DNA of 29,354 bases from a virus (Duplodnaviria; Caudoviricetes): the IMG/VR virus record IMGVR_UViG_3300032225_000733, positions 1 through 29,354 of that record, one strand, 5' to 3'. Positions 12,198 to 23,342 of the stretch are shown here, in pieces. The position numbers were made by a program, and so were the translations under genes. Under the pieces are notes generated by a model. The model searched no databases. It worked only from the letters and a program-made list of their open reading frames with translations, and was not told the origin of the DNA. Numbering within the stretch: the stretch's first letter is position 1; every line of letters begins with the position of its first letter.

Positions 12198-14843
12198 ATG
12201 GCAAATATTACATCTTTTGCTCCCGCCCCAATCAGCCAGGCCAATGGCCAAGCAATAACCCAAGCCAACCAACGCTCTGGTGCTTACGATGCTGTGGACA
12301 AGCTGCGGGTCAGCACACCCCAATCTCTGATCGACACTGACTTTGAATATGGTCAACAGTCCTCAAAATGGGAACAAGTTGCGCTGCAACAAAACCGTCA
12401 GTCCTGCTATTACCTGACCAACACGCCTTTGCAAGTCACTGCCATTGCTGGCAACCAGACAAACAAGTATCAGTTGGTGATCACTACCAGTAATAACACT
12501 ACGATTCCTACAGGCACACCCATTTTCATTCAAGACCCGTTGGATGCCAATGCCGGTGGTTGGGGACTTGTGACCACTGCTTCTAGCGCCAGCACCACAT
12601 TCACGGTGACAATGGGTTCACAGACCACAACGTCAATTTGCTGGTCAGCCACTGCCACTTACGTGTACCAAGGCTATTTCTATAGCCAGTGCGGCATCTC
12701 TTTGGGCATCACCACTGCATTCACATTCACTGGCTCAACAGTAACTTGCGTGACCGCATACCCGCACGGTCTGTCTGTTGGTTCACTCATCTTTGTGACC
12801 GGCACAACAGGGCCATCTACTGCCACACAGATCAATTCACCGCAGACCGTGGCAACTGTGACTGATGCCAAGACATTCACGTTCACCAACGTCAATGGCA
12901 CACCGTCTACAACCATTACCAACGTGGCCAACAACACCACGCTGTATGCCCGTCCTGCTGGTTTTGTGGACTGCCATGCTTATGATGGCTCAGTCAACTT
13001 TACTGCTGGCGCTGCTGTGCCAAACTCAATCCTGTTCCGTCAGACTCGCCGGTATTTCCGCTACCAGTCTGGCAAAGGCATTCAGTTCTCGACCGGCTCG
13101 ATGTTGGCTCCTCAGATTCAAACACCGACTCTGACAGCCTCTGGTTACACGGTTACAGTGACGACCAAGACACCACACTTGTTGGCCATCAACACGTATG
13201 TCAAAGTCACTGGTGCTGATCAGACCATCTACAACGGCACATTCTTGGTTCAGTCTGTTCCCTCTCCCACAACCTTTACCTACTTCACAGCAGGTAATGT
13301 CGTGCCAACAGTGACAACTGAAACGTCTACAACGCCCAATATCTTGCACGTTAGCCCTATCAATTGGTGGGGAAGTAGCAACAAGATTGGTTTTTTTGAC
13401 CAACAAAACGGCTTCTTTTTTCAGTACGATGGCCAGCAGTTGTATGCGGTCTTGCGTAACAGTATCAACCAAATCACCGGCACAGTATCTGTGACCAAAG
13501 GTGATGCCACTGTGACCGGCTCTGGTACACAATTTACAACCAATCTTTTGGTTGGCGATTACATTGTGATTCGTGGCCAGTCTTACAAAGTGTTGACCAT
13601 CACAAGTGACACGCAACTCTATATCACTCCTGAGTACAGAGGCGCAACGATTGCCAACGCCATTGTGTCCCGCACTATTGATACCAAAGTGCCGCAGTCT
13701 CAGTGGTATGACACGTTGGATGGAAGCAACAGTTTTGCCAATCCATCTGGTTATGCGCTTGATCTGACCAAAATTCAGATGTGGTACATCGACTATTCTT
13801 GGTACGGTGCTGGCGCTGTCCGATTTGGTATCCGTACTGTTGGCGGTGCAATTAACTATGTCTACACATTCCAGAACAACAACGTGCAGTACACGGCTTA
13901 CTTGCGTTCTGGTAACTTGTGCAGCCACTATGAACAAAACAATGAAGTACCTGTGACTAACCTGTTAGCAAGCATTGGAACAGGCGATTCAACACTTTAT
14001 GTCGGCAGCACACAGAGTTTCAACCCTGCTGGTGGCTCTGCGATCATTCGTGGTAACGGCACGGCTGGTGTGGTCGAGTACATCAAGTACACAGGACTGA
14101 CTCCTACCAGCTTGATTGGCGTGACCAGAGGACAGACTGGTGGTGCGGCTGCGACTGCATTCACCTATTCAGCTACTGCGCCTGTGACAGTGGAATACTC
14201 TTCTCCTGACACGGCAGCACTGTTGTCTCACTGGGGTTCGTCAGTTGTGATGGATGGAGGCTTCACAGCAGATGCGTCAGCCATTTACAACTACGGCATG
14301 ACCACTGCGTTGACCAGCCCGAACTCTACGGCTGCTGTGCCGATCATGGCCATCCGTCTTGCTCCATCTGTGGACAACGGCACGACTGGCTTGTTTGGTG
14401 TCAAAGAGATCATCAACAGATTGCAGGTTCAGTTTCGTGAGATTGCTGTAGTGACCAACGTCACATATTTGATTCAATTGATTTTGAACGGCGTACCGTC
14501 AGGATTTTCTGGATCGTTTGGTAACGTGGCTCAATCAGGTACAACCACAGATTCGATTTCACAAATAGCGGTGAACACTACAAACACAATAACGATCACT
14601 GGTGGTACATCCATTGCGGCTTTCTACAGCAACACTGGTGGGCAGACCACGTATGACCTGTCATACATTGCGCCAACAGGTAATGCGGCTTTGGGTGGCG
14701 GTACGTCTAACACTGTGCCAACCAGCCAAGCTAACTTCTACCCTGATGGTCCTGACATTGTGTATGTGGTTGCTAGCTCAACAATTGCCGGTGCGAGTAA
14801 TACAGTTCTTGCTCGTTTAAACTGGGTGGAGTCTCAAGCATAA
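12198..14843 (+). CDS. large beta-rich virion structural protein (tail fibre/spike-like)
   Basis: 881 aa, Thr/Gly-rich. KLRVSTPQSLIDTDFEYG.Q..KWE start, repeated T..PHGL..G..I.V.G modules, RQTRRYFRYQSGKG and IDYSWYGAG motifs seen in phage structural proteins. SD AGGAG upstream. Confidence 0.65.
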   Translation: MANITSFAPAPISQANGQAITQANQRSGAYDAVDKLRVSTPQSLIDTDFEYGQQSSKWEQVALQQNRQSCYYLTNTPLQVTAIAGNQTNKYQLVITTSNNTTIPTGTPIFIQDPLDANAGGWGLVTTASSASTTFTVTMGSQTTTSICWSATATYVYQGYFYSQCGISLGITTAFTFTGSTVTCVTAYPHGLSVGSLIFVTGTTGPSTATQINSPQTVATVTDAKTFTFTNVNGTPSTTITNVANNTTLYARPAGFVDCHAYDGSVNFTAGAAVPNSILFRQTRRYFRYQSGKGIQFSTGSMLAPQIQTPTLTASGYTVTVTTKTPHLLAINTYVKVTGADQTIYNGTFLVQSVPSPTTFTYFTAGNVVPTVTTETSTTPNILHVSPINWWGSSNKIGFFDQQNGFFFQYDGQQLYAVLRNSINQITGTVSVTKGDATVTGSGTQFTTNLLVGDYIVIRGQSYKVLTITSDTQLYITPEYRGATIANAIVSRTIDTKVPQSQWYDTLDGSNSFANPSGYALDLTKIQMWYIDYSWYGAGAVRFGIRTVGGAINYVYTFQNNNVQYTAYLRSGNLCSHYEQNNEVPVTNLLASIGTGDSTLYVGSTQSFNPAGGSAIIRGNGTAGVVEYIKYTGLTPTSLIGVTRGQTGGAAATAFTYSATAPVTVEYSSPDTAALLSHWGSSVVMDGGFTADASAIYNYGMTTALTSPNSTAAVPIMAIRLAPSVDNGTTGLFGVKEIINRLQVQFREIAVVTNVTYLIQLILNGVPSGFSGSFGNVAQSGTTTDSISQIAVNTTNTITITGGTSIAAFYSNTGGQTTYDLSYIAPTGNAALGGGTSNTVPTSQANFYPDGPDIVYVVASSTIAGASNTVLARLNWVESQA

Positions 14844-14973
14844 AGTTCTTACTGTCTGCGAATCCTGCGTTGTACCCAGCAACGTAGGCTTCAGTCACGA
14901 TACGTCTAAAATCCTCAAGACGTATTTGTTGGTCTTGGCTGATTTTCTCCAGCCCCATATCTGAATTCTCCAT
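14773..14973 (-). CDS. possible small hypothetical protein
   Basis: EAYVAGYNAGF motif is typical of small phage proteins, but the ORF overlaps both neighbours. Confidence 0.3.
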   Translation of the reverse strand: MENSDMGLEKISQDQQIRLEDFRRIVTEAYVAGYNAGFADSKNFMLETPPSLNEQELYYSHRQLLS

Positions 14974-15215
14974 CCTGCTTCCCTTACTTTTGGCAGCAAA
15001 TCGCTGGCCATAATCTTCTTGAGTCGCTCTGAAACCCCGCTTGCAGTTGCCTGTATAGCGAGGGTCTCATCCCGTTTGATTGCCAGGATGTCGATAAAAC
15101 CAAACAAGTCTTGTCTGATCCTGGCGTGTGGATTCCATTTTTCCACGATTGCCACGGTGTAGCCCTGCTCTCGCAGGACTTCCAACGTACGGCTGGTGGG
15201 AGACTCTTTAGCCAT
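14895..15215 (-). CDS. PD-(D/E)xK nuclease (Holliday-junction resolvase / VRR-NUC-like)
   Basis: LREQGYTV.IVE.W...R.DLFGFIDILAI.....AIQAT. Located at the end of the recombination operon. Confidence 0.7.
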   Translation of the reverse strand: MAKESPTSRTLEVLREQGYTVAIVEKWNPHARIRQDLFGFIDILAIKRDETLAIQATASGVSERLKKIMASDLLPKVREAGWRIQIWGWRKSAKTNKYVLRILDVS

Positions 15216-15556
15216 CAGAACGGCACATCGTCATCGTCAACACGAATCTTGCTGTGCATCGGGGCAGGTTTGTTAAGGCCAAAGGTGCGAGGCTGGATTT
15301 CCTTTGGTCTGTCCTTTTCCTGCTCCTTGAGTTCATTTTGCTTCTTACTCCAGTTGTCCTCACGCAACGACAGCAGGGTAAAACCAGATGAAGTCTCCTT
15401 CGTCCAGATGCCAAACTTGACCTTCTCACCGGCTTTGTAATCCATCTCCAAGGTGATGAATCCTGTGTACTCAGGTGCTTTGTCTGACCTGCGCTTCTCT
15501 GGTGGATCGTAGTATGCAACACCTGTGCCTGGTCTTGGTTGATGTGGGTCTGCCAT
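15215..15556 (-). CDS. putative single-stranded DNA-binding protein
   Basis: K.SDKAPEYTG.I motif and an acidic SSB-type C-terminus DDDDVPF. Confidence 0.65.
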   Translation of the reverse strand: MADPHQPRPGTGVAYYDPPEKRRSDKAPEYTGFITLEMDYKAGEKVKFGIWTKETSSGFTLLSLREDNWSKKQNELKEQEKDRPKEIQPRTFGLNKPAPMHSKIRVDDDDVPF

Positions 15557-15558
15557 GA

Positions 15559-16080
15559 TTACTCCTTGATTTTATTAATGTTAAATGTGTCAGACATTAT
15601 TTCGGCATAGTCAAAATGTTTGCCAAAGCAATCTGAGAAATGGATTTCTTCAGCAGAAAATCCCTCTATCCCCTTATCATATACAAAGCATTTTTTAGGA
15701 ATGCTGATCTGATTTTTAAGGAATGATATGCCTTTGCTGGTGACTTGCCATAGACCATCTGACTTCTTTGTCTTGTCTTCAGACTTGTCTACCTTGACGA
15801 TCAGACCCCAGTGCTGCAGGGCAGGGTAAGTTCTGCTCTTGACGATCCACAGGGGTGCGTTGTCAGTGATCTTCACAAACCCGTTGTCGTTGACTGGCTG
15901 GCGGGAAAGCCACAGCAAAGACAGCGCCATGTTCTCAGTCAGGCTGACAGCATTGATCTTGCCCCAACGATCACAGCAAGGGCAGTGGCCGCCTTCGTTC
16001 TCAATGGTTGTGCGCCAATTGCTGCGAATTGCATCCAGCGCCGCCTCCCCAAAAAAATCCAGTTGTTTCATGAAGCTCAT
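15559..16080 (-). CDS. hypothetical protein (CPCC Zn-knuckle + winged-helix-like)
   Basis: Start MSFMKQ in ATGA overlap with the upstream stop. GGHCPCCDRW and L.HWGLI...SDGLWQVTSKG. Confidence 0.65.
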   Translation of the reverse strand: MSFMKQLDFFGEAALDAIRSNWRTTIENEGGHCPCCDRWGKINAVSLTENMALSLLWLSRQPVNDNGFVKITDNAPLWIVKSRTYPALQHWGLIVKVDKSEDKTKKSDGLWQVTSKGISFLKNQISIPKKCFVYDKGIEGFSAEEIHFSDCFGKHFDYAEIMSDTFNINKIKE

Positions 16081-16838
16081 GGCTGCACCTCCACAGGGAT
16101 GAGTTTGGCCAACAAGGTAGCGTTGCACTCCTCAAGAGACAAGATACGCTCTTCTTTGCCTTCTTCTGTCAGCTTGGGAGACTTCTGAATCTTCTCCAGC
16201 ATTGCGTTGAAACCATCCAGCCATTCCTCCATCGTGGCGTAGCTGGCATAGGCTTCCTCTGAACCTGGGATCATCAAAGGGTATGGCAGTTCTTTAGGGA
16301 TCGGTGCGTCCTCAACGTGTAGTACTGTGTCCACCCGTTCCGCTGTACCCATGTGTTTCGTCTTTGGTTCAAAATCTTGTACCTCTTCTGGCGTGTAGAC
16401 ACCGACGACACAGCCTGGAAACACGGCACGAATGCCTTCCGATATAGTTCTTGCACGTAGCATTGCTCTTGGATACTTCGACCAATTGTCCTTGTTGGCA
16501 ATCCCGATCCTTTTAGCTTGAGCAAGAGACCAACCGAGTTCAAGTGTGCCGCCTTGCGGGTGGCTGAATACCCCTGTAACTTGTTCATCTGTGTATTCCT
16601 TCCAAACTACTGAACCACCGGCTGCTTGAAACCTGGCCAGCATTGCGTCTGCTTTGAGGGCTGGGCGGCCTTGGATGACATGGTAGTCACGCATGGCCAC
16701 GGCTGGGTGCATGTTCTCGCCTTGGCACAAAAGCATGATTGCCAGTGCTTCTTGCGTGTTCTTGAAGCCAAACATCTTGGAGGATGCTGCGACCTCTGCC
16801 ATCTGCTGCATGTCGTTGTAGGGGATGATGTTGCTCAT
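16077..16838 (-). CDS. RecT/Redbeta-like ssDNA annealing recombinase
   Basis: HVIQGRPALKADAMLA, A.RIG...KDNW.KYPRAML.AR.IS.GIR.VFP....GVYTPEE motifs. Downstream of YqaJ. Confidence 0.8.
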   Translation of the reverse strand: MSNIIPYNDMQQMAEVAASSKMFGFKNTQEALAIMLLCQGENMHPAVAMRDYHVIQGRPALKADAMLARFQAAGGSVVWKEYTDEQVTGVFSHPQGGTLELGWSLAQAKRIGIANKDNWSKYPRAMLRARTISEGIRAVFPGCVVGVYTPEEVQDFEPKTKHMGTAERVDTVLHVEDAPIPKELPYPLMIPGSEEAYASYATMEEWLDGFNAMLEKIQKSPKLTEEGKEERILSLEECNATLLAKLIPVEVQP

Positions 16839-17068
16839 GATGTGCCTTTCATTGGTTTGCGACCAGGCTTTTGGCGTGGTGTCCCGTCTTGGTTGAACCC
16901 GTAGCGTTCATCTGTTTTCATCTGACGTACGTCTTTTTGCAAGTTCTTGAAGTCAACATGAGTCAGTTGGTGTAAACGCATCGTCTGTATTTCTAAGCGC
17001 TGGTTCAACCGTTCAACAGTAAATCTTAATTGCTCAAGTTCTTGTTTGTGTTTGCTTGTGTAAAACAT
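16835..17068 (-). CDS. hypothetical protein with AT-hook-like tail
   Basis: 77 aa. Coiled coil followed by YGFNQDGTPRQKPGRKP. Confidence 0.65.
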   Translation of the reverse strand: MFYTSKHKQELEQLRFTVERLNQRLEIQTMRLHQLTHVDFKNLQKDVRQMKTDERYGFNQDGTPRQKPGRKPMKGTS

Positions 17069-17071
17069 TAC

Positions 17072-17974
17072 TTATCCTTTGATTAAGAATCTGCGGCTAC
17101 CAGCCTTTTGAACAACAAACTTGTCGTAGATGTCTGGCATGGCTGACTGGAACAGCTTGCTGTCAAAGCCCATCGTAGGCTTGGCAGACTTCCATGTGGC
17201 GAGGATTGCACCGTCGATAGCTACCAGGCTGTCAGCATCTTGCATATAGCCTTGGATGAGGGTCTGTACCTGCTCTTCTTGCTTCTCAAGTTCCTTGATC
17301 TTGGCCTTGAGATCAAAGAGCATTGCACAGGCTTGCTCAACGCTTTGGGAGGCCATTTTTGCTGTGCCGGATACAGATGCAGGGTAGAGCAGTTTTGTCT
17401 GCTCTAAGTCCTCTGGCGGCAGTGTTGTGCCGTTTTGCACATGCGTCCAGATTTCTGACAAGGTGCGGATATGTTCTGCCTTCATCTGGTCAGTGACTTC
17501 GACAGGGATGATGACCAGTTCCTGACCACCAAAGAGGACAGCCAGGTAAACCTTGGAGACACCGACAACTGTTGCTTCGTGGATACACTGGGCAAGATCA
17601 GCGGCTGGCATCATGCCTGTGTCTGCATCGTACTTAGATCGCACGGCTGCGTTGTAGTTTTTGCACTCGACCAGGATGCGGTGAATATCTTCATAGCCAC
17701 CAAAGTCAACGTGGGTCTTTAGCCAATCATGTTCTGGGTGCGTGTAGGCTTCCTCATACTTGGTGAGCAGGATGTTTAAACGCTTCTCTGCCAGTTGACC
17801 GATGACCGGCTCCATGACATGACCCATCTGGACAGATTCTATGCCGGACAGATCGGGGATGGGCATCTTGCCGAGTTTGGTGAGAATGACTTCGTTGGCC
17901 TTGCCGGATGCAATCCTGCGAGCGTCACCACTCCACATGGCAGAGTTACGGGTTTCTGGGGTGAAATCACTCAT
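17072..17974 (-). CDS. YqaJ-like (lambda exo family) viral recombinase exonuclease
   Basis: Start MSDFTPETR after AGGAGA. Motifs R...WSGDA, GHVMEPVI, HPEHDWL..HVDF, VECKN, Q..HE..V.G....YLAVLFGG and C-terminal SRRFLIK. Confidence 0.88.
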   Translation of the reverse strand: MSDFTPETRNSAMWSGDARRIASGKANEVILTKLGKMPIPDLSGIESVQMGHVMEPVIGQLAEKRLNILLTKYEEAYTHPEHDWLKTHVDFGGYEDIHRILVECKNYNAAVRSKYDADTGMMPAADLAQCIHEATVVGVSKVYLAVLFGGQELVIIPVEVTDQMKAEHIRTLSEIWTHVQNGTTLPPEDLEQTKLLYPASVSGTAKMASQSVEQACAMLFDLKAKIKELEKQEEQVQTLIQGYMQDADSLVAIDGAILATWKSAKPTMGFDSKLFQSAMPDIYDKFVVQKAGSRRFLIKG

Positions 17975-18230
17975 GGCGAATGTCTCCTGCGAGCAGTTCT
18001 GCCTCTTCTTCCACAGAGAGGGGCGAGGGGATAGGGGCATAGTGATCGCCTGTGGGTTTGCAGTTACCGTGTGCTCGCCGTTCATGCTCGGCAAAGGGTA
18101 GCTCTACGATGGGTTTGGGGTCACCAGATACAAGGCTTATAGGGCGCTCATAGCCACAACGGGACATTTCTAAGTTGTGGGGTGCAGCTTCAGAGAGAAG
18201 CATGTGGATACAGTTTTTACAGAGTTTCAT
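17967..18230 (-). CDS. hypothetical Cys-rich protein
   Basis: MKLCKNCIH...C...SLVSG...ERR..G.C.P.G after leader AAGGAAGTTATCC. Confidence 0.7.
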   Translation of the reverse strand: MKLCKNCIHMLLSEAAPHNLEMSRCGYERPISLVSGDPKPIVELPFAEHERRAHGNCKPTGDHYAPIPSPLSVEEEAELLAGDIRHE

Positions 18231-18272
18231 GGATAACTTCCTTTTCGGTTGATGCACAAGATTGTGCGAGAG

Positions 18273-18282
18273 AATGATAACA
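18273..18282 (-). promoter_or_regulatory. putative extended -10 promoter for the recombination operon
   Basis: Minus strand TG-T-TATCAT about 45 nt upstream of ATG18230. Confidence 0.4.
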
Positions 18283-18285
18283 CTA

Positions 18286-18465
18286 TTACGACATTGTGTA
18301 TTTCTTGATCTTCTTTTCCTCCTTGGTTGTGTTTGTTTGTTTACTGGGGTCTGTGTATGCACCCAGTTTGCCTAGTACTTCACGCCAGGCTTTCTGGGCA
18401 GGGATGCAAATCTTCTCTCCAGCTTCTTCTCTGGCTTTTAGTTTGAATGCCCATTCTTTACTCAT
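18286..18465 (-). CDS. small hypothetical protein (59 aa, not in ORF track)
   Basis: MSKEWAFKLKAREEAGEKICIPAQKAWREVLG... ATGA overlap with upstream mini-ORF. WA..LK.RE..GE......Q..WRE.L is a recurrent phage motif. Confidence 0.6.
   Translation of the reverse strand: MSKEWAFKLKAREEAGEKICIPAQKAWREVLGKLGAYTDPSKQTNTTKEEKKIKKYTMS
18351..18366. promoter_or_regulatory. putative LexA (SOS) box
   Basis: CTGTGTATGCACCCAG = CTG-N10-CAG, about 70 nt upstream of the putative recombination-operon -10. Confidence 0.45.
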
Positions 18466-18524
18466 TGGGACTCCCTGTGTAGCTTGGCGAGGTTGTGTCT
18501 CTTTCTGATTGCTCTGACCTTCAT
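18462..18524 (-). CDS. 20-aa basic mini-ORF
   Basis: MKVRAIRKRHNLAKLHRESQ*. GAAAGGA upstream. Stop is coupled (ATGA) to the next gene. Confidence 0.4.
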   Translation of the reverse strand: MKVRAIRKRHNLAKLHRESQ

Positions 18525-18525
18525 T

Positions 18526-18823
18526 TCACATTCCTTTCGGCAATACAAGGGCTACGATAGGGATGATGATTAGTAGCATCCCTACTTTCACCCTGTTGGG
18601 TGTCAGCATTGGGGTTTGACCCTTAATGCCGTCTACTGCTTTATTTATCGACCCAGAGAATTTGTCTCTGCAACAATCCATCAGCCTATTTAGTCGTTTA
18701 TCACTTGGGGTAGAACCCTCGTGCAGCCGTCCCCCTTGGGTCAAGCTGATCCGCTTTCCTCCCTCGCTGCCACAGACATGGGCACTTAATATCGCTAGGG
18801 GTGCGGTTGACGTGAAAGGGCAT
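18526..18823. other. structured non-coding tract (hairpin array)
   Basis: Inverted repeats at 18558-18584, 18589-18602, 18606-18629, 18654-18670 and 18708-18718. No convincing protein. Confidence 0.5.
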
Positions 18824-18925
18824 AAAAAAAGCCACTTAGCTCTACCCTCGGTGGAAACCCAGAGGTAAAAACCAAGGGCGAGAGTAGAATTAAGTGGCCT
18901 CAATTGATTGCTTTCCACGGCAACG
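18824..18925 (-). ncRNA. putative ~100-nt structured leader/small RNA ending in an intrinsic terminator
   Basis: 5' hairpin GUUGC-CGUGGAAA-GCAAU. 20-bp stem GCCACUUAAUUCUACUCUCG/CGAGGGUAGAGCUAAGUGGC with two G-U pairs and one mismatch, followed by U7. Loop UUUCCAC is complementary to GUGGAAA. Confidence 0.6.
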
Positions 18926-18931
18926 GGATAG

Positions 18932-18961
18932 ATATTAACTCAGGATTAGAAGTACTGTCAA
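18932..18961 (-). promoter_or_regulatory. sigma70-type promoter
   Basis: Minus strand TTGACA (18956-18961), 18-nt spacer, TAATAT (18932-18937). Predicted TSS ~18925 coincides with the 5' hairpin. Confidence 0.65.
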
Positions 18962-19108
18962 GAAACAAACCACAAAAAACCCTAAGAGATATAAGACTAC
19001 TTCATGCAAGGGCATGGGCTTTTGCCACTGGGGTGCTTCTGGGAATGCTTCCATCAAAGTCCTTGGAAACTGTTTAAACGTGTCGTCGTGGTGTTTGAAT
19101 TTGATCAT
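18935..19108 (-). CDS. small membrane protein (57 aa, not in ORF track)
   Basis: MIKFKHHDDTFKQFPRTLMEAFP...VVLYLLGFFVVCFLTVLLILS*. PRTL.EAF motif and C-terminal TM. ATGA overlap and AGGAG SD. Confidence 0.65.
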   Translation of the reverse strand: MIKFKHHDDTFKQFPRTLMEAFPEAPQWQKPMPLHEVVLYLLGFFVVCFLTVLLILS

Positions 19109-19329
19109 GCTGTTTGCTCCTGGTTAGATTGTTTACGGGTCTTGCGTACTTTATCGGCAACCATCTTGCGAATCAGTAGGGACTGGCTGCACCTATGCGA
19201 GGGTACAACCCTAAACAACATCACGGGGTGATCTGGTCTGGTTGCTAGATTCTCTGGCAGTTGCCATAAGTCTTTAAGCACTGCAAAGGTCTTGCAATGC
19301 ACGTTATAAACTGTTTGATATGCACTCAT
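19105..19329 (-). CDS. hypothetical protein
   Basis: 74 aa. Leader AAGGTGACAGC ATG. Confidence 0.55.
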   Translation of the reverse strand: MSAYQTVYNVHCKTFAVLKDLWQLPENLATRPDHPVMLFRVVPSHRCSQSLLIRKMVADKVRKTRKQSNQEQTA

Positions 19330-19338
19330 GCTGTCACC

Positions 19339-19593
19339 TTATCCTTTCACAAACACGTGGCAATACCCTGCATTGTTAGGCAATGAACCTTGGGCTAATT
19401 TGCCGTAGTGGTCATCGTCCCATCCCAAGTGTTCGACCAGCTTATACGCTGCGTCTAGGTGTGTTCCTGCATCGTCTTTGTCGTATGTGTAGGGGACAAT
19501 GACAGCATCAGCATCACACCAGGCTTTTATACGTGCGCCTCTGTGGTCTGTTGCTGGCATGTATTTGGTTTGTATTGCTTGATAGGTTTTCAT
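19339..19593 (-). CDS. conserved phage early hypothetical protein
   Basis: MKTYQAIQTKYMPATDHRGARIKA matches the recurrent QAI.TKY..PT..RG.RIKA family. Leader AGGAGAGTTATCC. Confidence 0.75.
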   Translation of the reverse strand: MKTYQAIQTKYMPATDHRGARIKAWCDADAVIVPYTYDKDDAGTHLDAAYKLVEHLGWDDDHYGKLAQGSLPNNAGYCHVFVKG

Positions 19594-19672
19594 GGATAAC
19601 TCTCCTAGTTGGTTTTGACTGACAACATTATCAATCCACAAGCCCACATGATGAGCTTGTAGGTGACACTGT

Positions 19673-19837
19673 TTAAACGGTCTGTGCTTTGTTGTGTTGG
19701 TATTGCTGTTCTGCCCACTTGTCCACAATCATTACTTCATGATCGTATTCTGCTTGGGTGATCTTGCTTTGCATGAGTTGTGCGTCCAGTTTGTCTATTG
19801 CTCGCTCTACTATGATTTCAATTTGGGTTTCGGTCAT
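19673..19837 (-). CDS. hypothetical protein
   Basis: MTETQIEIIVERAIDKLDAQLM...ITQAEYD. Leader AAGGTGACATC. Confidence 0.65.
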   Translation of the reverse strand: MTETQIEIIVERAIDKLDAQLMQSKITQAEYDHEVMIVDKWAEQQYQHNKAQTV

Positions 19838-19848
19838 GATGTCACCTT

Positions 19849-20001
19849 TTAAATGAAAGATAAACCTGTAATTCGAAAGCATTTGCCCGAATCAGTTTCA
19901 ATATCAATAGTGCCGAATGGATGCACAGCAAGCACAGTTACTGCCTGTGGTTTGCCATACACGTGCAGTGTGATGCGTTGACCTACTTTTGGTTTGTTCA
20001 T
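19849..20001 (-). CDS. small hypothetical protein (50 aa, SH3-like; not in ORF track)
   Basis: MNKPKVGQRITLHVYGKPQAVTVLAVHPFGTIDIETDSGKCFRITGLSFI*. Leader AGGAGAGTTATCC. Confidence 0.7.
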   Translation of the reverse strand: MNKPKVGQRITLHVYGKPQAVTVLAVHPFGTIDIETDSGKCFRITGLSFI

Positions 20002-20045
20002 GGATAACTCTCCTTTGTGTGAATGATACGATTATATAACGATTA

Positions 20046-20073
20046 GGGGATACTGCCCGTTGACAATATCCCC
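20046..20073 (-). promoter_or_regulatory. intergenic hairpin next to a putative -10 (TATAAT at 20031-20036)
   Basis: Minus-strand GGGGAUAUUGUC / GGCAGUAUCCCC, a 12-bp stem with G-U pairs. Confidence 0.5.
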
Positions 20074-20083
20074 ATTCTTTTTT

Positions 20084-20266
20084 TTACTCTTTGCCCAATT
20101 CAATTGAAAGCTGTTTAAACACTGTCTTGCGATTGCCTTGATAACCCATTCGTTTCAATGCTTTGTAGCAGCCAGTAATTAGTCCTGTTTCAATTTCCAG
20201 CTTCAAACCTCTCCACAATGTGAGCATTCTGAATGCTTGGATGTTGTCCTGGCCTGTGATGATCAT
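20084..20266 (-). CDS. hypothetical protein
   Basis: MIITGQDNIQAFRMLTLWRGLKLEI... Leader AGGAGAGTTAACC. Confidence 0.7.
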   Translation of the reverse strand: MIITGQDNIQAFRMLTLWRGLKLEIETGLITGCYKALKRMGYQGNRKTVFKQLSIELGKE

Positions 20267-20346
20267 GGTTAACTCTCCTATTGATTGATTGAAATTGATT
20301 GTGCGAATCACAATCCAGCAGGCCACTGTCACTGGCCTACTAGGTG

Positions 20347-20913
20347 TTACTCTGCCTGCATCATGCCGTGTTCTGGGCAGTGTGGCGCACCCATCTCATC
20401 CAGCCACTTGCCAGCCACTCGCACGGTATAACCACATTCGGTGCAGTAGCATTTCAGCATTCTGGTTGTCTGCTTCTTTTGTGCGTTTGAGGGGATAAGA
20501 TCGGCGTGAGGATATTGGCCTAGGCGCTCGATCACTGGCGTTGCCCATTCGATAAACTTAGGGCCAGCGATAGTGGCTGTCATCTTGCCCTCGAGACCGA
20601 TAGCAGTAGCAGTGCGTTTAAACAGTTTACCGTGTCCATCACCGGGATGACATGCGTGAACCAGTTCATGCGCCAGTATGTCGAGCACTCGCATCGAATC
20701 ACTGATAGTAGGTGAGATAAAAATCTCAGCATGTTTGTCAGCAGATGCCTTAGCAGACCAGCATTCACCAATACGTCGATTCTTGTTTGACAATGCTGAT
20801 TTACTTGGAAAACCACAGCTAGAGCGCACTTCTAAGGGCAGATCAACGCCATGCTGTTTAAACAGACTTCTCAATTCATCTGTTGCATTTGATAACCATT
20901 CTTCTCGTTTCAT
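20347..20913 (-). CDS. SprT-like zinc metalloprotease-domain protein with C-terminal Zn ribbon
   Basis: IGECW, LAHELVHA (HExxH), HGKLFK and C-terminal KC.C.ECGY.VR....W....GAP.CP. Confidence 0.75.
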   Translation of the reverse strand: MKREEWLSNATDELRSLFKQHGVDLPLEVRSSCGFPSKSALSNKNRRIGECWSAKASADKHAEIFISPTISDSMRVLDILAHELVHACHPGDGHGKLFKRTATAIGLEGKMTATIAGPKFIEWATPVIERLGQYPHADLIPSNAQKKQTTRMLKCYCTECGYTVRVAGKWLDEMGAPHCPEHGMMQAE

Positions 20914-21054
20914 GAGTAACTCCTCTTGATTGTCGATAGCACTATTGCTAACGATGAGTATATAACGTGATAGACCCTAGATGCGTTTACACGGTTTACA
21001 ATTTATTTTGTTGTAATTTTACCAATGTAAGTTTCTGTAAGGGTTATACTATTA

Positions 21055-21074
21055 TACTGGTTTTGCATACAGTA
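21055..21074. promoter_or_regulatory. LexA (SOS) box
   Basis: TACTGGTTTTGCATACAGTA = TACTG-N10-CAGTA. Abuts/overlaps a minus-strand TATAAT (21051-21056) and plus-strand TATACT hexamers in the divergent intergenic region. Confidence 0.7.
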
Positions 21075-21117
21075 TCGTTTATATCATGCTATTGACTTCA
21101 TAGTCATTAATTGATAG

Positions 21118-21126
21118 TTATCCACA
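21118..21126 (+). promoter_or_regulatory. DnaA box (perfect consensus)
   Basis: TTATCCACA in an AT-rich non-coding region. Single copy. Confidence 0.45.
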
Positions 21127-21375
21127 ATGGTCAACATGGGGTAAGGATGAACGTCAATCACCTTAAGCTCACAGTAGATAAGCATAATCCATGCCTGCTA
21201 GGGCGCTATGTGATGCTATACGTGTATAGACCGCAAATCCCGTAATGGATTGGCCGAGTGAATGGGATGTCAGCTCTATGTGGTGTGACCCCCACATTGC
21301 TCCCACCCCCAAAAAAAATACTGGTATTGGCGGTATGTGTTAATATCTGTACATGTGTGTATTAAGGGATAGACC

Positions 21376-21594
21376 ATGTTAGAGATTACTATAGAGAAGA
21401 GAGTACCTATACCGGCGTTACGTAAGGTGTATGCGTATCCTTATGAGAAGATGGCTGTGGGGGATAGCTTTACTGTTCCTTTGTCGGACAGGGCTAAGGT
21501 ACTGAATGCCAACTGGAGGGCTGGTAAGCGGTTGTTGATAAAGCTATCTGCCAAGACCCAGGGGGATGTGGTGCGTACTTGGCGTATTGAATGA
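21376..21594 (+). CDS. small putative DNA-binding protein
   Basis: IEK.VPIP......YPYEKMAVGDSF.VP...VRTWRI is a recurrent phage family. AAGGG SD. Confidence 0.7.
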   Translation: MLEITIEKRVPIPALRKVYAYPYEKMAVGDSFTVPLSDRAKVLNANWRAGKRLLIKLSAKTQGDVVRTWRIE

Positions 21595-23342
21595 AGTTTG
21601 ATCTAGACCGGTTCTATCGCTTCTGTGCTCAACTCAAGATTGAGTCTAAGGAAGACGGTTTGATTCCTATGGTCAAGCCCTTGGGGACTCAGACGTATGT
21701 GATGAATGAGATAGCAAAGGGGTTAGACGATGACATTCACTTCTTCGTTATTCTCAAGGGTCGGCAGTTGGGTATCACAACCATATCACTGGCTCTTGAC
21801 CTCTACTGGCAATTTACTCACCCCGGATGGCAGGGTACGCTGGTGGCGGATACAGAAGAGAACAGAGACATGTTTCGTTCAACACTGGGGATGTATATGG
21901 AAGGACTTCCCAAAGAGTTCAAGATTCCCTTGGTGGCCCATAACCGTAACCAGATGGTACTCAAGAACAGAAGCCGCATCTTTTACCAGATTGCTGGAAA
22001 TAAGTCTCGTCTGGGGCAGGGTAAAGCTATTACTTATCTTCACGGCACAGAAACAGCCTCCTGGGGTAATGAAGAAGGACTTGCATCCCTTTTAGCTTCT
22101 CTTGCTGAAAAGAACCCAGAACGCCTGTACATGTTTGAAAGCACCGCCCAAGGTTTCAACATGTTCCACGACATGTACAAGACCGCCAAGTTTGCCAAAA
22201 CACAGAAGGCCATCTTCTGCGGCTGGTGGCGTAATGAGTACTACATGGTTGATGCTGACTCATCTATGTACAAAGTCTACTGGGATGGCAAACTGACAGG
22301 TGAAGAGAAAGAGTGGACAAAAGATATTAAGAAGCTGTACGGCGTAGAGATCAACTCTCGCCAAATGGCGTGGTGGCGCTGGAAGATGGCAGAAGGTATT
22401 AAGGACGAAAGCCTGATGTACCAAGAGTTTCCACCCACTGAAGACTACGCATTTGTGATGACGGGGACTAGCTTCTTCTCAAACAGCCGCTGTACAGATG
22501 CAGCCAAGGTTGCCAAGAAGACAGTACCCGACTGTTATCGCTATACCTTTGGCCAACACTTCCAAGATACACAAGTAATCCGTTCAACAGAACGACTGGG
22601 GACACTGCGTATCTGGGAAGAACCAGACGATAAGGGATACTATGTTATTGGCGCTGACCCTGCTTACGGCTCTTCTGATTGGGCTGATCGCTTTTGTATA
22701 CAGGTGTATCGTTGCTATGCTGATGGACTAGACCAGGTAGCAGAGTTTGCAACCGCTGAGATGAACACCTACCAGTTTGCGTGGGTCATCGCCCATCTTG
22801 CAGGTGCATATAAAAACTCAACCATGAACCTGGAAGTCAACGGCCCTGGACAAAACGTCATTGCCGAGATCAGGCGGCTGCGAACATTGGCAACCTCCAT
22901 GACCAACCAAATGGGACGGGACTTGCGAGATGTGCTGGGCAGTATGCAAAATTACATCTGGCGCAAGATGGACAACATGGGCGGCCTATCTAACAGCATA
23001 GGTTTCATGACCACCCACCAAACAAAAGAGCGCATGATGAACTACATGAAAGACTTCTTTGAGCGTGGGATGATGAATGTCTACAGCATGGACTTGCTGG
23101 AAGAGATGAAGACCATCGTGCGTGAGGACGGATTCTTGGGAGCACCTGGGCGCAGCAAAGATGACCGTGTGATTGCTTCCGCACTGGCAACCGTGGCGTG
23201 GGCAGAGCAGGTACAGCCTAGACTCATTACCAACTACATCACCCGTGAAAAGCAAGCCAAAGACGCTGTGCTGCCAGAAAGTGACCTGTATGTGGGCAAG
23301 GTAGCAGCCAATTACTTGGCCAGAATAGGACTACGGCAATGA
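21591..23342 (+). CDS. terL: terminase large subunit
   Basis: Walker A ILKGRQLGITT, Walker B-like YLHGTE, coupling motif ESTAQG, nuclease IGADPA...D, LEVNGPG and C-terminal DDRVIA. Confidence 0.93.
   Translation: MKFDLDRFYRFCAQLKIESKEDGLIPMVKPLGTQTYVMNEIAKGLDDDIHFFVILKGRQLGITTISLALDLYWQFTHPGWQGTLVADTEENRDMFRSTLGMYMEGLPKEFKIPLVAHNRNQMVLKNRSRIFYQIAGNKSRLGQGKAITYLHGTETASWGNEEGLASLLASLAEKNPERLYMFESTAQGFNMFHDMYKTAKFAKTQKAIFCGWWRNEYYMVDADSSMYKVYWDGKLTGEEKEWTKDIKKLYGVEINSRQMAWWRWKMAEGIKDESLMYQEFPPTEDYAFVMTGTSFFSNSRCTDAAKVAKKTVPDCYRYTFGQHFQDTQVIRSTERLGTLRIWEEPDDKGYYVIGADPAYGSSDWADRFCIQVYRCYADGLDQVAEFATAEMNTYQFAWVIAHLAGAYKNSTMNLEVNGPGQNVIAEIRRLRTLATSMTNQMGRDLRDVLGSMQNYIWRKMDNMGGLSNSIGFMTTHQTKERMMNYMKDFFERGMMNVYSMDLLEEMKTIVREDGFLGAPGRSKDDRVIASALATVAWAEQVQPRLITNYITREKQAKDAVLPESDLYVGKVAANYLARIGLRQ

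Follow-up and report, generated by a model that had tools for sequence, protein, structure and literature searches.

A tailed phage (Duplodnaviria; Caudoviricetes) carries, on the minus strand of its early region, a cassette in which a conserved promoter is followed by a ~100-nt terminator leader and a ~265-nt multi-helix element. The tract is non-coding, and the element is, judged by comparison with its relatives, real, structured and uncatalogued. We propose that the cassette would act as a transcription-dependent origin of replication in place of the origin-binding half of an O-type initiator, a role to which we give about an even chance; all support for a function is genomic association. 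The window, by which we mean the whole 29,354-nt stretch analysed, is the linear IMG/VR record IMGVR_UViG_3300032225_000733, which is 82% complete and whose genes include those for terminase, portal, major head, lysis, RecE-like and RecT-like proteins. PHROGs and Pfam detected no polymerase, primase, helicase or initiator among its 44 ORFs, bearing out the first-pass annotation's account of an early block devoid of a recognisable replication gene, and none was found in the complete relatives of the same subtype. A hidden initiator was sought among the early genes that the complete subtype genomes have in common. These encode RecE, RecT, two small proteins of a DNA-metabolism type and a fifth product, and no initiator-like one is among them; the 173-aa ORF at 15559, considered for the same role, is not common to these genomes and matches only unnamed clusters. 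The locus comprises the following features.

18932..18961, minus: sigma-70-type promoter (TTGACA-18-TAATAT), -35 at 18961-18956, -10 at 18937-18932
18907..18924, minus: leader hairpin 1 (predicted fold), its loop 18918-18912 being the 5' partner of the pseudoknot
18824..18898, minus: terminator-like hairpin 18898-18831 and T7 tract, with a 3'-side bulge (18857-18851) exactly complementary to the hairpin-1 loop
18744..18811, minus: family-defining 5' module (model R1, 50.9 bits, the window being within the training set), with stem 18800-18797/18764-18761, a conserved 9-nt bulge and hairpin 18784-18781/18771-18768
18546..18738, minus: 3' domain, closed by a predicted long-range helix of 18738-18728 with 18556-18546
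18635..18727, minus: inner junction, with helices 18727-18723/18639-18635 and 18696-18692/18653-18649 and hairpin 18722-18703
18572..18631, minus: three tandem hairpins, 18631-18604, 18602-18589 and the variable 18586-18572
18526..18918, minus: 130-codon open frame, judged spurious (no third-position bias)
18286..18465, minus: 59-aa coding ORF, residues 3-32 matching the C-termini of proteins encoded after O genes
16077..17971, minus: RecE-like exonuclease and RecT-like annealing genes, downstream of the cassette (context)
20914..21375, no strand: divergent intergenic region, in which lie the 250 nt of the window that are richest in AT

Promoter, leader and folded element

The consensus promoter reported at first pass is present at 18961-18932 on the minus strand. 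Single matches of this type are not above chance (4 found, 9.6 in shuffles); such a promoter occurs in 25 of 35 homologous leaders, always 7 nt before hairpin 1, as against 0.7% of shuffles. No plus-strand promoter was found in 14000-22000. As a separate observation, ATCATCATC, invariant in the window (18540-18575) and its homologues, makes up with the element's 3' end a weak opposite-strand promoter with a 19-nt spacer in 18 of 42 homologues; this promoter is absent from the window, and any such site occurs in 2 of 100 members of the wider family.

The leader (18930-18815) has a folding energy of -42.6 kcal/mol (z -5.2), which none of 200 shuffles matched, and its fold is directly followed by a T7 tract at 18830-18824. 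The structured leader with its terminator, described earlier, is confirmed; a simple terminator scan had missed the terminator, its loop limit being 8 nt. The 'attenuator' of the first pass contains a predicted, hypervariable 7-bp pseudoknot that had been overlooked. Parsing gave 35 distinct leaders out of 46 with sufficient upstream DNA, and in 33 of the 35 the hairpin-1 loop is perfectly complemented over at least 7 bases at the 3' bulge of the terminator stem, and in the window bulge 18857-18851 is the exact complement of loop 18918-18912. The pseudoknot 7-mers fall into 18 different sequences, and only 6 of 1122 non-self pairs reach seven matches. This leader is not exclusive to the element, since locus L039 has one of the same design ahead of a full-length O-type gene; a generic detector found it in at least 82 of 115 carriers and at least 1 of 39 full-length loci, counts that are lower bounds because the L039 leader was itself missed. 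Leaders of this kind were also seen before full-length O-type genes at L039:2800-2935 and in L300, and the pseudoknot-terminator leader may on its own be a widespread, unlisted phage replication leader. No terminator-like site lies 3' of the element in the window.

The tract beyond the leader had been described as a ~300-nt hairpin array. Its inverted-repeat count does not exceed chance (4 perfect hairpins of at least 5 bp, shuffled mean 2.1, 50 of 300 shuffles as high) and the tract 18820-18520 folds with z -2.4; what stands is a structure conserved by covariation. Protein and motif searches returned 53 distinct matches of the window's subtype, 43 of them full length, and an alignment of 42 was made by leaving out 10 partial rows and one chance match, the window replacing its own copy. 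The stems are kept by compensatory change in these 42 homologues: two-sided changes affect 20 of the 51 pairs in the consensus fold, and 98.0% of 2139 cells are paired, counts that lean towards the fold in that it was derived from the same alignment. None of 500 shuffles was as good, slid controls were 29-44% paired, and all 500 shuffles were beaten on four of five measures, the exception being further pair types. Across 58 diverse sequences the 5' module is 98.8% paired and two-sided change is seen in 100 cells, the search motif itself having fixed a portion of the 5' arm. Hairpin 18722-18703 and helix 18696-18692/18653-18649 covary, and hairpins 18631-18604 and 18602-18589 keep their shape despite different stem letters; the long-range closing helix is nearly invariant, so that no two-sided change supports it. 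The mean folding z of family bodies is only -0.7 (30 members).

The G-tracts noted earlier are present, although not as unpaired loops. ColE1-type origins use an unpaired G-stretch for persistent hybrid formation, whereas the window's subtype lacks a free G-loop and its G-runs are predicted helix strands: GGGGGACGG is predicted to pair with 18556-18546, and GAGGGAGG belongs to the 5' stem, at a place where G-runs are missing from most of the family. In another subtype, a hairpin with a G-run is found at the 3' end. Loop classes are enriched over shuffles on the sense strand (GNRA 14 vs 3.5, UNCG 4 vs 0.8) and not on the reverse strand (2 vs 1.1 and 1 vs 2.0), GNA triloops number 2 of 85, and G-U wobbles occur on the sense strand; wobble pairs and loops together favour the sense strand acting as RNA. 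Inserts of 100-170 nt were observed within one hairpin loop of the element (L079:2826-2941, minus strand; L109, L078 and L127); that of L079 scores as a tRNA at 33.7 bits, and ARAGORN called no tRNA among the tRNA-like inserts. Likenesses to hammerhead, group I and group II introns were considered and rejected, the motifs varying among homologues and having no Rfam match. No iteron-like direct repeats were found in 17800-19600.

The view that the tract encodes no convincing protein was upheld, and no codon-level conservation of the 130-codon frame was found. Third-position bias is absent (entropy 0.28, 0.38 and 0.23 over 116 gap-free subtype columns), and 8 synonymous stand against 55 non-synonymous variants (8/63, or 13%, vs a random expectation of 26%); in RecE and the 59-aa ORF, by contrast, the third-position bias is clear. 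The frame is broken in most family members, remaining open for 70 codons in only 23 of 115, and the stop frames at the 3' end differ. It stays open in 27 of 42 close homologues, which is not fully explained. As to the 59-aa ORF, previously likened to the C-termini of replication-associated proteins, the C-terminal match holds, but to the products of genes lying directly after full-length O-type genes and not to initiators, and the ORF is likely a remnant of the gene that follows O-type initiators. A large protein search found no relatives of greater length; the same small gene lies downstream of O/P in L039 and of the element in L049, and the six O/P phages related through the 59-aa motif have no element. 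A 20-codon basic ORF (18462-18524, minus strand) was also noticed 3' of the element and ahead of the 59-aa ORF; its codons overlap those of both neighbours, and L003-L006 conserve it.

Distribution of the family

A 22-nt motif from the 5' end returned at least 120 loci, from which about 300 IMG/VR stretches are estimated; the 5' module is common to 122 distinct sequences whose bodies differ, and its motif is single copy in all 29 matching records of the 39 searched. Two loci, L189 and L216, were rejected as chance pattern matches. The only named phage matching the window's element is MW202753.1, a complete circular genome with a 69% match over exactly the element tract, a RecE 46% identical to that of the window and the 130-codon frame annotated as a hypothetical protein; the single named-phage match of another subtype (27 nt, E 0.3) was discarded. 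With two subtypes as queries, 72,556 plasmids gave no match beyond E 0.9, and the 37-nt matches at that value were inspected and judged to be chance. Rfam 15 has no match at gathering score on the element core in the window and 56 family and slot loci, where the only Rfam matches were tRNA and RF02932. No published description was found; the alignments of PMC10690425 and the supplement of PMC5737381 lay outside the search, so an earlier listing there is possible.

Six matches to the family's 5' motif occur in GTDB genomes, all metagenome-assembled: an uncultured Burkholderiales bin has two, a 187-kb Sulfuritalea contig one, and bins of other groups three. Two different subtypes were seen on separate contigs of one Burkholderiales bin (L272 with L271), and at L187:1380-1510 the 3' end of one subtype directly precedes a full element of another. 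No RNA run was among the sequencing runs listed. Four contig sets mapped at 85% likeness gave high leader depth in two runs of one study, which says nothing on expression because the runs are probably DNA and depth is high over a conserved part of RecE too.

The place of the O-type initiator

The cassette was thought to occupy the slot of a replication gene, and that slot can now be described as the usual place of the first (5') half of the gene for an O-type initiator. A replication-type gene lies no more than about 3 kb away in 39 of 87 carrier loci, the genes being 15 stand-alone initiator C-terminal domains, 14 primases, 9 SF2 helicases, 6 primase-helicases and 4 copies of the 59-aa remnant. 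PHROG scans of 16 further genomes, covering 339 of the 344 cluster representatives of at least 120 aa, gave initiator matches to the C-terminal part of the profile only and no DNA polymerase. When 38 carrier records were searched in six frames with 47 initiator N-terminal queries, no convincing match to the origin-binding N-terminal domain emerged, two partial matches being marginal (E 1e-4 and 5e-4) and five of five controls being found. Seven of these records had been chosen through their truncated initiator; among the other 31, none has a convincing full initiator. The 38 divide into 13 with the C-terminal domain only, 14 with a primase or helicase and 11 with no replication gene detected, the last including four window-subtype records that are 92-100% complete. 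The expression 'initiator-free origin' is too strong for the family as a whole, in which 27 of 38 carriers keep the C-terminal domain or a primase/helicase and two phages have the element beside a full O/P module. At L247:6914-7486 (genome G016), just behind an element, we observed an initiator C-terminal domain fused to a ribbon-helix-helix-like N-terminus that falls below the Pfam cut-off.

Loci were also fetched by the initiator C-terminal domain alone: of 80, 11 duplicates or short flanks and two intermediates were dropped, leaving 28 truncated and 39 full-length loci, which were scanned with a 5'-module covariance model trained without two overlapping contigs. Of the 28 truncated loci, 13 have the element at a distance of no more than 2.5 kb, in every case upstream and in the same orientation, as against none of the 39 full-length loci; over whole records, 1 of 38 full-length ones contains it. 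Fisher values overstate this association, because habitat and host differ between the sets and the truncated forms are few lineages, and it is confounded, truncated proteins having supplied the query and other habitats being represented in the full-length set. The 13 loci form 6 clusters at 70% identity, and a single origin of truncation is possible; on a quick tree the full-length label needs 5 changes, of which well-supported branches force only 1. RF02932, the Betaproteobacteria-1 RNA, which we take to be that of Weinberg 2017, occurs in 8 of the other 15 truncated records and in none of the 38 full-length ones, with no overlap with the element's 13 (p 0.002). Near-identical truncated initiators carry one RNA or the other, and the two are interleaved in two clades of the poorly resolved quick tree.

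Two carriers combine the element with a full-length O-type initiator and its partner gene: in G093 it lies 4.4 kb upstream of a full DUF1376-type initiator and heads a recombination operon, and in L043 a full O/P pair is followed 1.9 kb downstream by the element, which has a promoter of its own. Some carriers have the element in a structural operon, before the major head gene or after the terminase gene. Conversely, both initiator and element are absent from two complete relatives, G001 and G002, so replication in the window's clade is possible without the element. These two genomes contain tracts that are very rich in AT and dense in palindromes (minimum GC 0.13 and 0.20) and are mostly absent from the clade's carriers; L009 has two DnaA-box-like 9-mers beside such a tract, and these tracts could be a third origin type. 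In the window, the divergent region 20914-21375, with one DnaA-box-like 9-mer at 21126-21118, is a rival origin candidate outside the cassette. RecE relatives were seen to hold in the slot a different ~200-nt non-coding tract with repeated GATAAAC, in either orientation and without an Rfam match. Promoter-leader-tract cassettes of other types were found by eye upstream of truncated initiators in L283, L291, L292, L294 and L328; the four scanned have no Rfam match.

G001:9537-10275; G002:31500-31845 and 29656-30147; L009:3100-3400; L021; L025: extremely AT-rich, palindrome-dense tracts, all in relatives lacking both initiator and structured element
L015:480-720; L016; L017; L018; L019; L026; L028; L029: GATAAAC tract, reverse
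L030:1-130; L008:4250-4440; L048:30-260: GATAAAC tract, forward

Candidate mechanism, alternatives and known systems

In the mechanism that we propose, host RNA polymerase would start near 18925 and most transcripts would stop at the T7 tract, giving a ~100-nt RNA, the pairing of the hairpin-1 loop with the terminator bulge setting the level of read-through. The read-through RNA would fold and remain on its template as an R-loop, with an RNA-DNA junction predicted near 18545, supplying a primer or a displaced strand at which host restart enzymes (Pol I, PriA, DnaB) or a leftover phage loader, primase or helicase would act. The 18 pseudoknot 7-mers would be specificity groups through which a short RNA could exert copy or superinfection control in trans. 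An RNA-primed origin had been suggested at first pass, and the non-coding, covarying tract in the initiator slot speaks for it; of the ColE1 features, neither a free G-loop in the window's subtype nor a conserved antisense RNA I promoter over the 5' end was found.

Unlikely in our estimate, though carrying appreciable weight, is a free-standing, trans-acting phage ncRNA with a non-replication job such as host take-over or counter-defence, its link to truncated initiators being shared ancestry. Such an RNA would suit the element's own promoter, its mobile position, structural operons included, its coexistence with a full O/P in two phages, the RNA-type loops and tRNA-like insert, and the few independent lineages behind the initiator association. 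It fits poorly with two unrelated RNAs that swap at one slot between close relatives and never occur together (28 records), with a window that has no terminator-like site after the element and with the absence of a convincing full initiator from all 31 carriers not picked by way of a truncated one.

It is rather improbable that the same origin role is exerted by single-stranded DNA instead of RNA, transcription displacing one strand and so exposing an ssi or primosome-assembly-type signal; the element's purine arm may resemble a PriA primosome assembly site. The sense-only G-U/G-T wobbles fit the non-template strand as well as RNA, the element lies directly 3' of primase genes in several carriers, and, according to Weinberg 2017, such motifs may act as ssDNA. 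The enrichment of GNRA and UNCG but not GNA loops, the tRNA-like insert and the tight tie to promoter and leader all point away from DNA.

An RNA acting in cis as an antiterminator or leader, and so controlling the early operon that follows, has a slim chance. HK022 put is an example of such an RNA, and the element does head the early transcript, follow a terminator switch and end about 20 nt before the next start codon, just as it heads the recombination operon of G093; however, the genes downstream vary widely and are sometimes convergent, and the loss of the initiator's N-terminal domains would be left unexplained. That the 130-codon frame is a real protein to which structure is secondary is very improbable and largely refuted, for although it is open in many close homologues, is annotated in MW202753 and is kept by 16 of 18 length variants of one segment, it has neither the codon signature of RecE and the 59-aa ORF nor an open frame across the family.

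For the transcription-dependent origin, several known systems offer comparison. In the lambda-type O/P module (PHROG replication-initiation families 270, 9474 and 9327) a Cro-like gene, promoter, leader and replication functions follow one another as they do here, and remnants of both genes persist downstream of the element; unlike lambda, the origin-binding N-terminal domain is replaced by a folded non-coding element with no iteron-like repeats. The immunity RNAs P1 C4 and P4 CI resemble the leader: they too are short, terminated phage RNAs that stand first in an early operon and carry hypervariable segments for pairing. Here, however, the two complementary segments belong to one and the same leader, and no second target that covaries was observed further downstream. 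The RF02932 RNA shares the slot upstream of truncated O-type initiators and is mutually exclusive with the element, but differs in sequence and fold: model R1 has no match at RF02932 loci, and the RF02932 covariance score did not exceed 49.4 bits in the window or in any of four window-subtype carrier records.

Among plasmid motifs, ARRPOF, PAGEV and GEBRO are 220-350-nt covarying motifs tied to replication regions (PMC5737381); the region of ARRPOF supports rep-independent replication, which makes it the nearest precedent for a covarying motif in such a region. The element differs from them in residing in phages and in its lack of an Rfam match; ARRPOF, PAGEV, GEBRO, C4, GOLLD and ROOL do not match it at Rfam gathering score. 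The ColE1/pMB1 origin, with its RNA II pre-primer, RNA I, RNase H, Pol I and PriA-type ssi, uses a promoter-driven folded RNA and has no origin-binding initiator (PMC5935869; PMC3167613). The cassette, in which a promoter and a covarying fold are observed, would use a pre-primer RNA in the same way, and specificity could come from a short accompanying RNA whose pairing letters vary. Yet the element has no sequence likeness to plasmids, its control is a same-strand pseudoknotted terminator leader and not an antisense RNA I, and it resides in tailed phages that often keep the initiator C-terminal domain or a primase/helicase. Lacking homology, an antisense RNA I and a free G-loop, it is not a member of the ColE1 family and would, by analogy, work like RNA II.

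More broadly, and at somewhat less than even chance, we suggest that non-homologous, interchangeable RNA origins (the element family, Betaproteobacteria-1 and further slot occupants) replace the origin-recognition half of the initiator in many uncultured tailed phages, gated by a pseudoknot-terminator switch whose 7-mer would set incompatibility, and that in the window's clade RNA and host enzymes may suffice. If true, this would explain how DNA is copied in many 35-kb phages that have no recognisable replication gene and would extend RNA-primed initiation from ColE1 plasmids to a widespread group of phages with new folds. The orphan Rfam motif RF02932 and several unnamed RNAs would then gain a common function that is directly testable.
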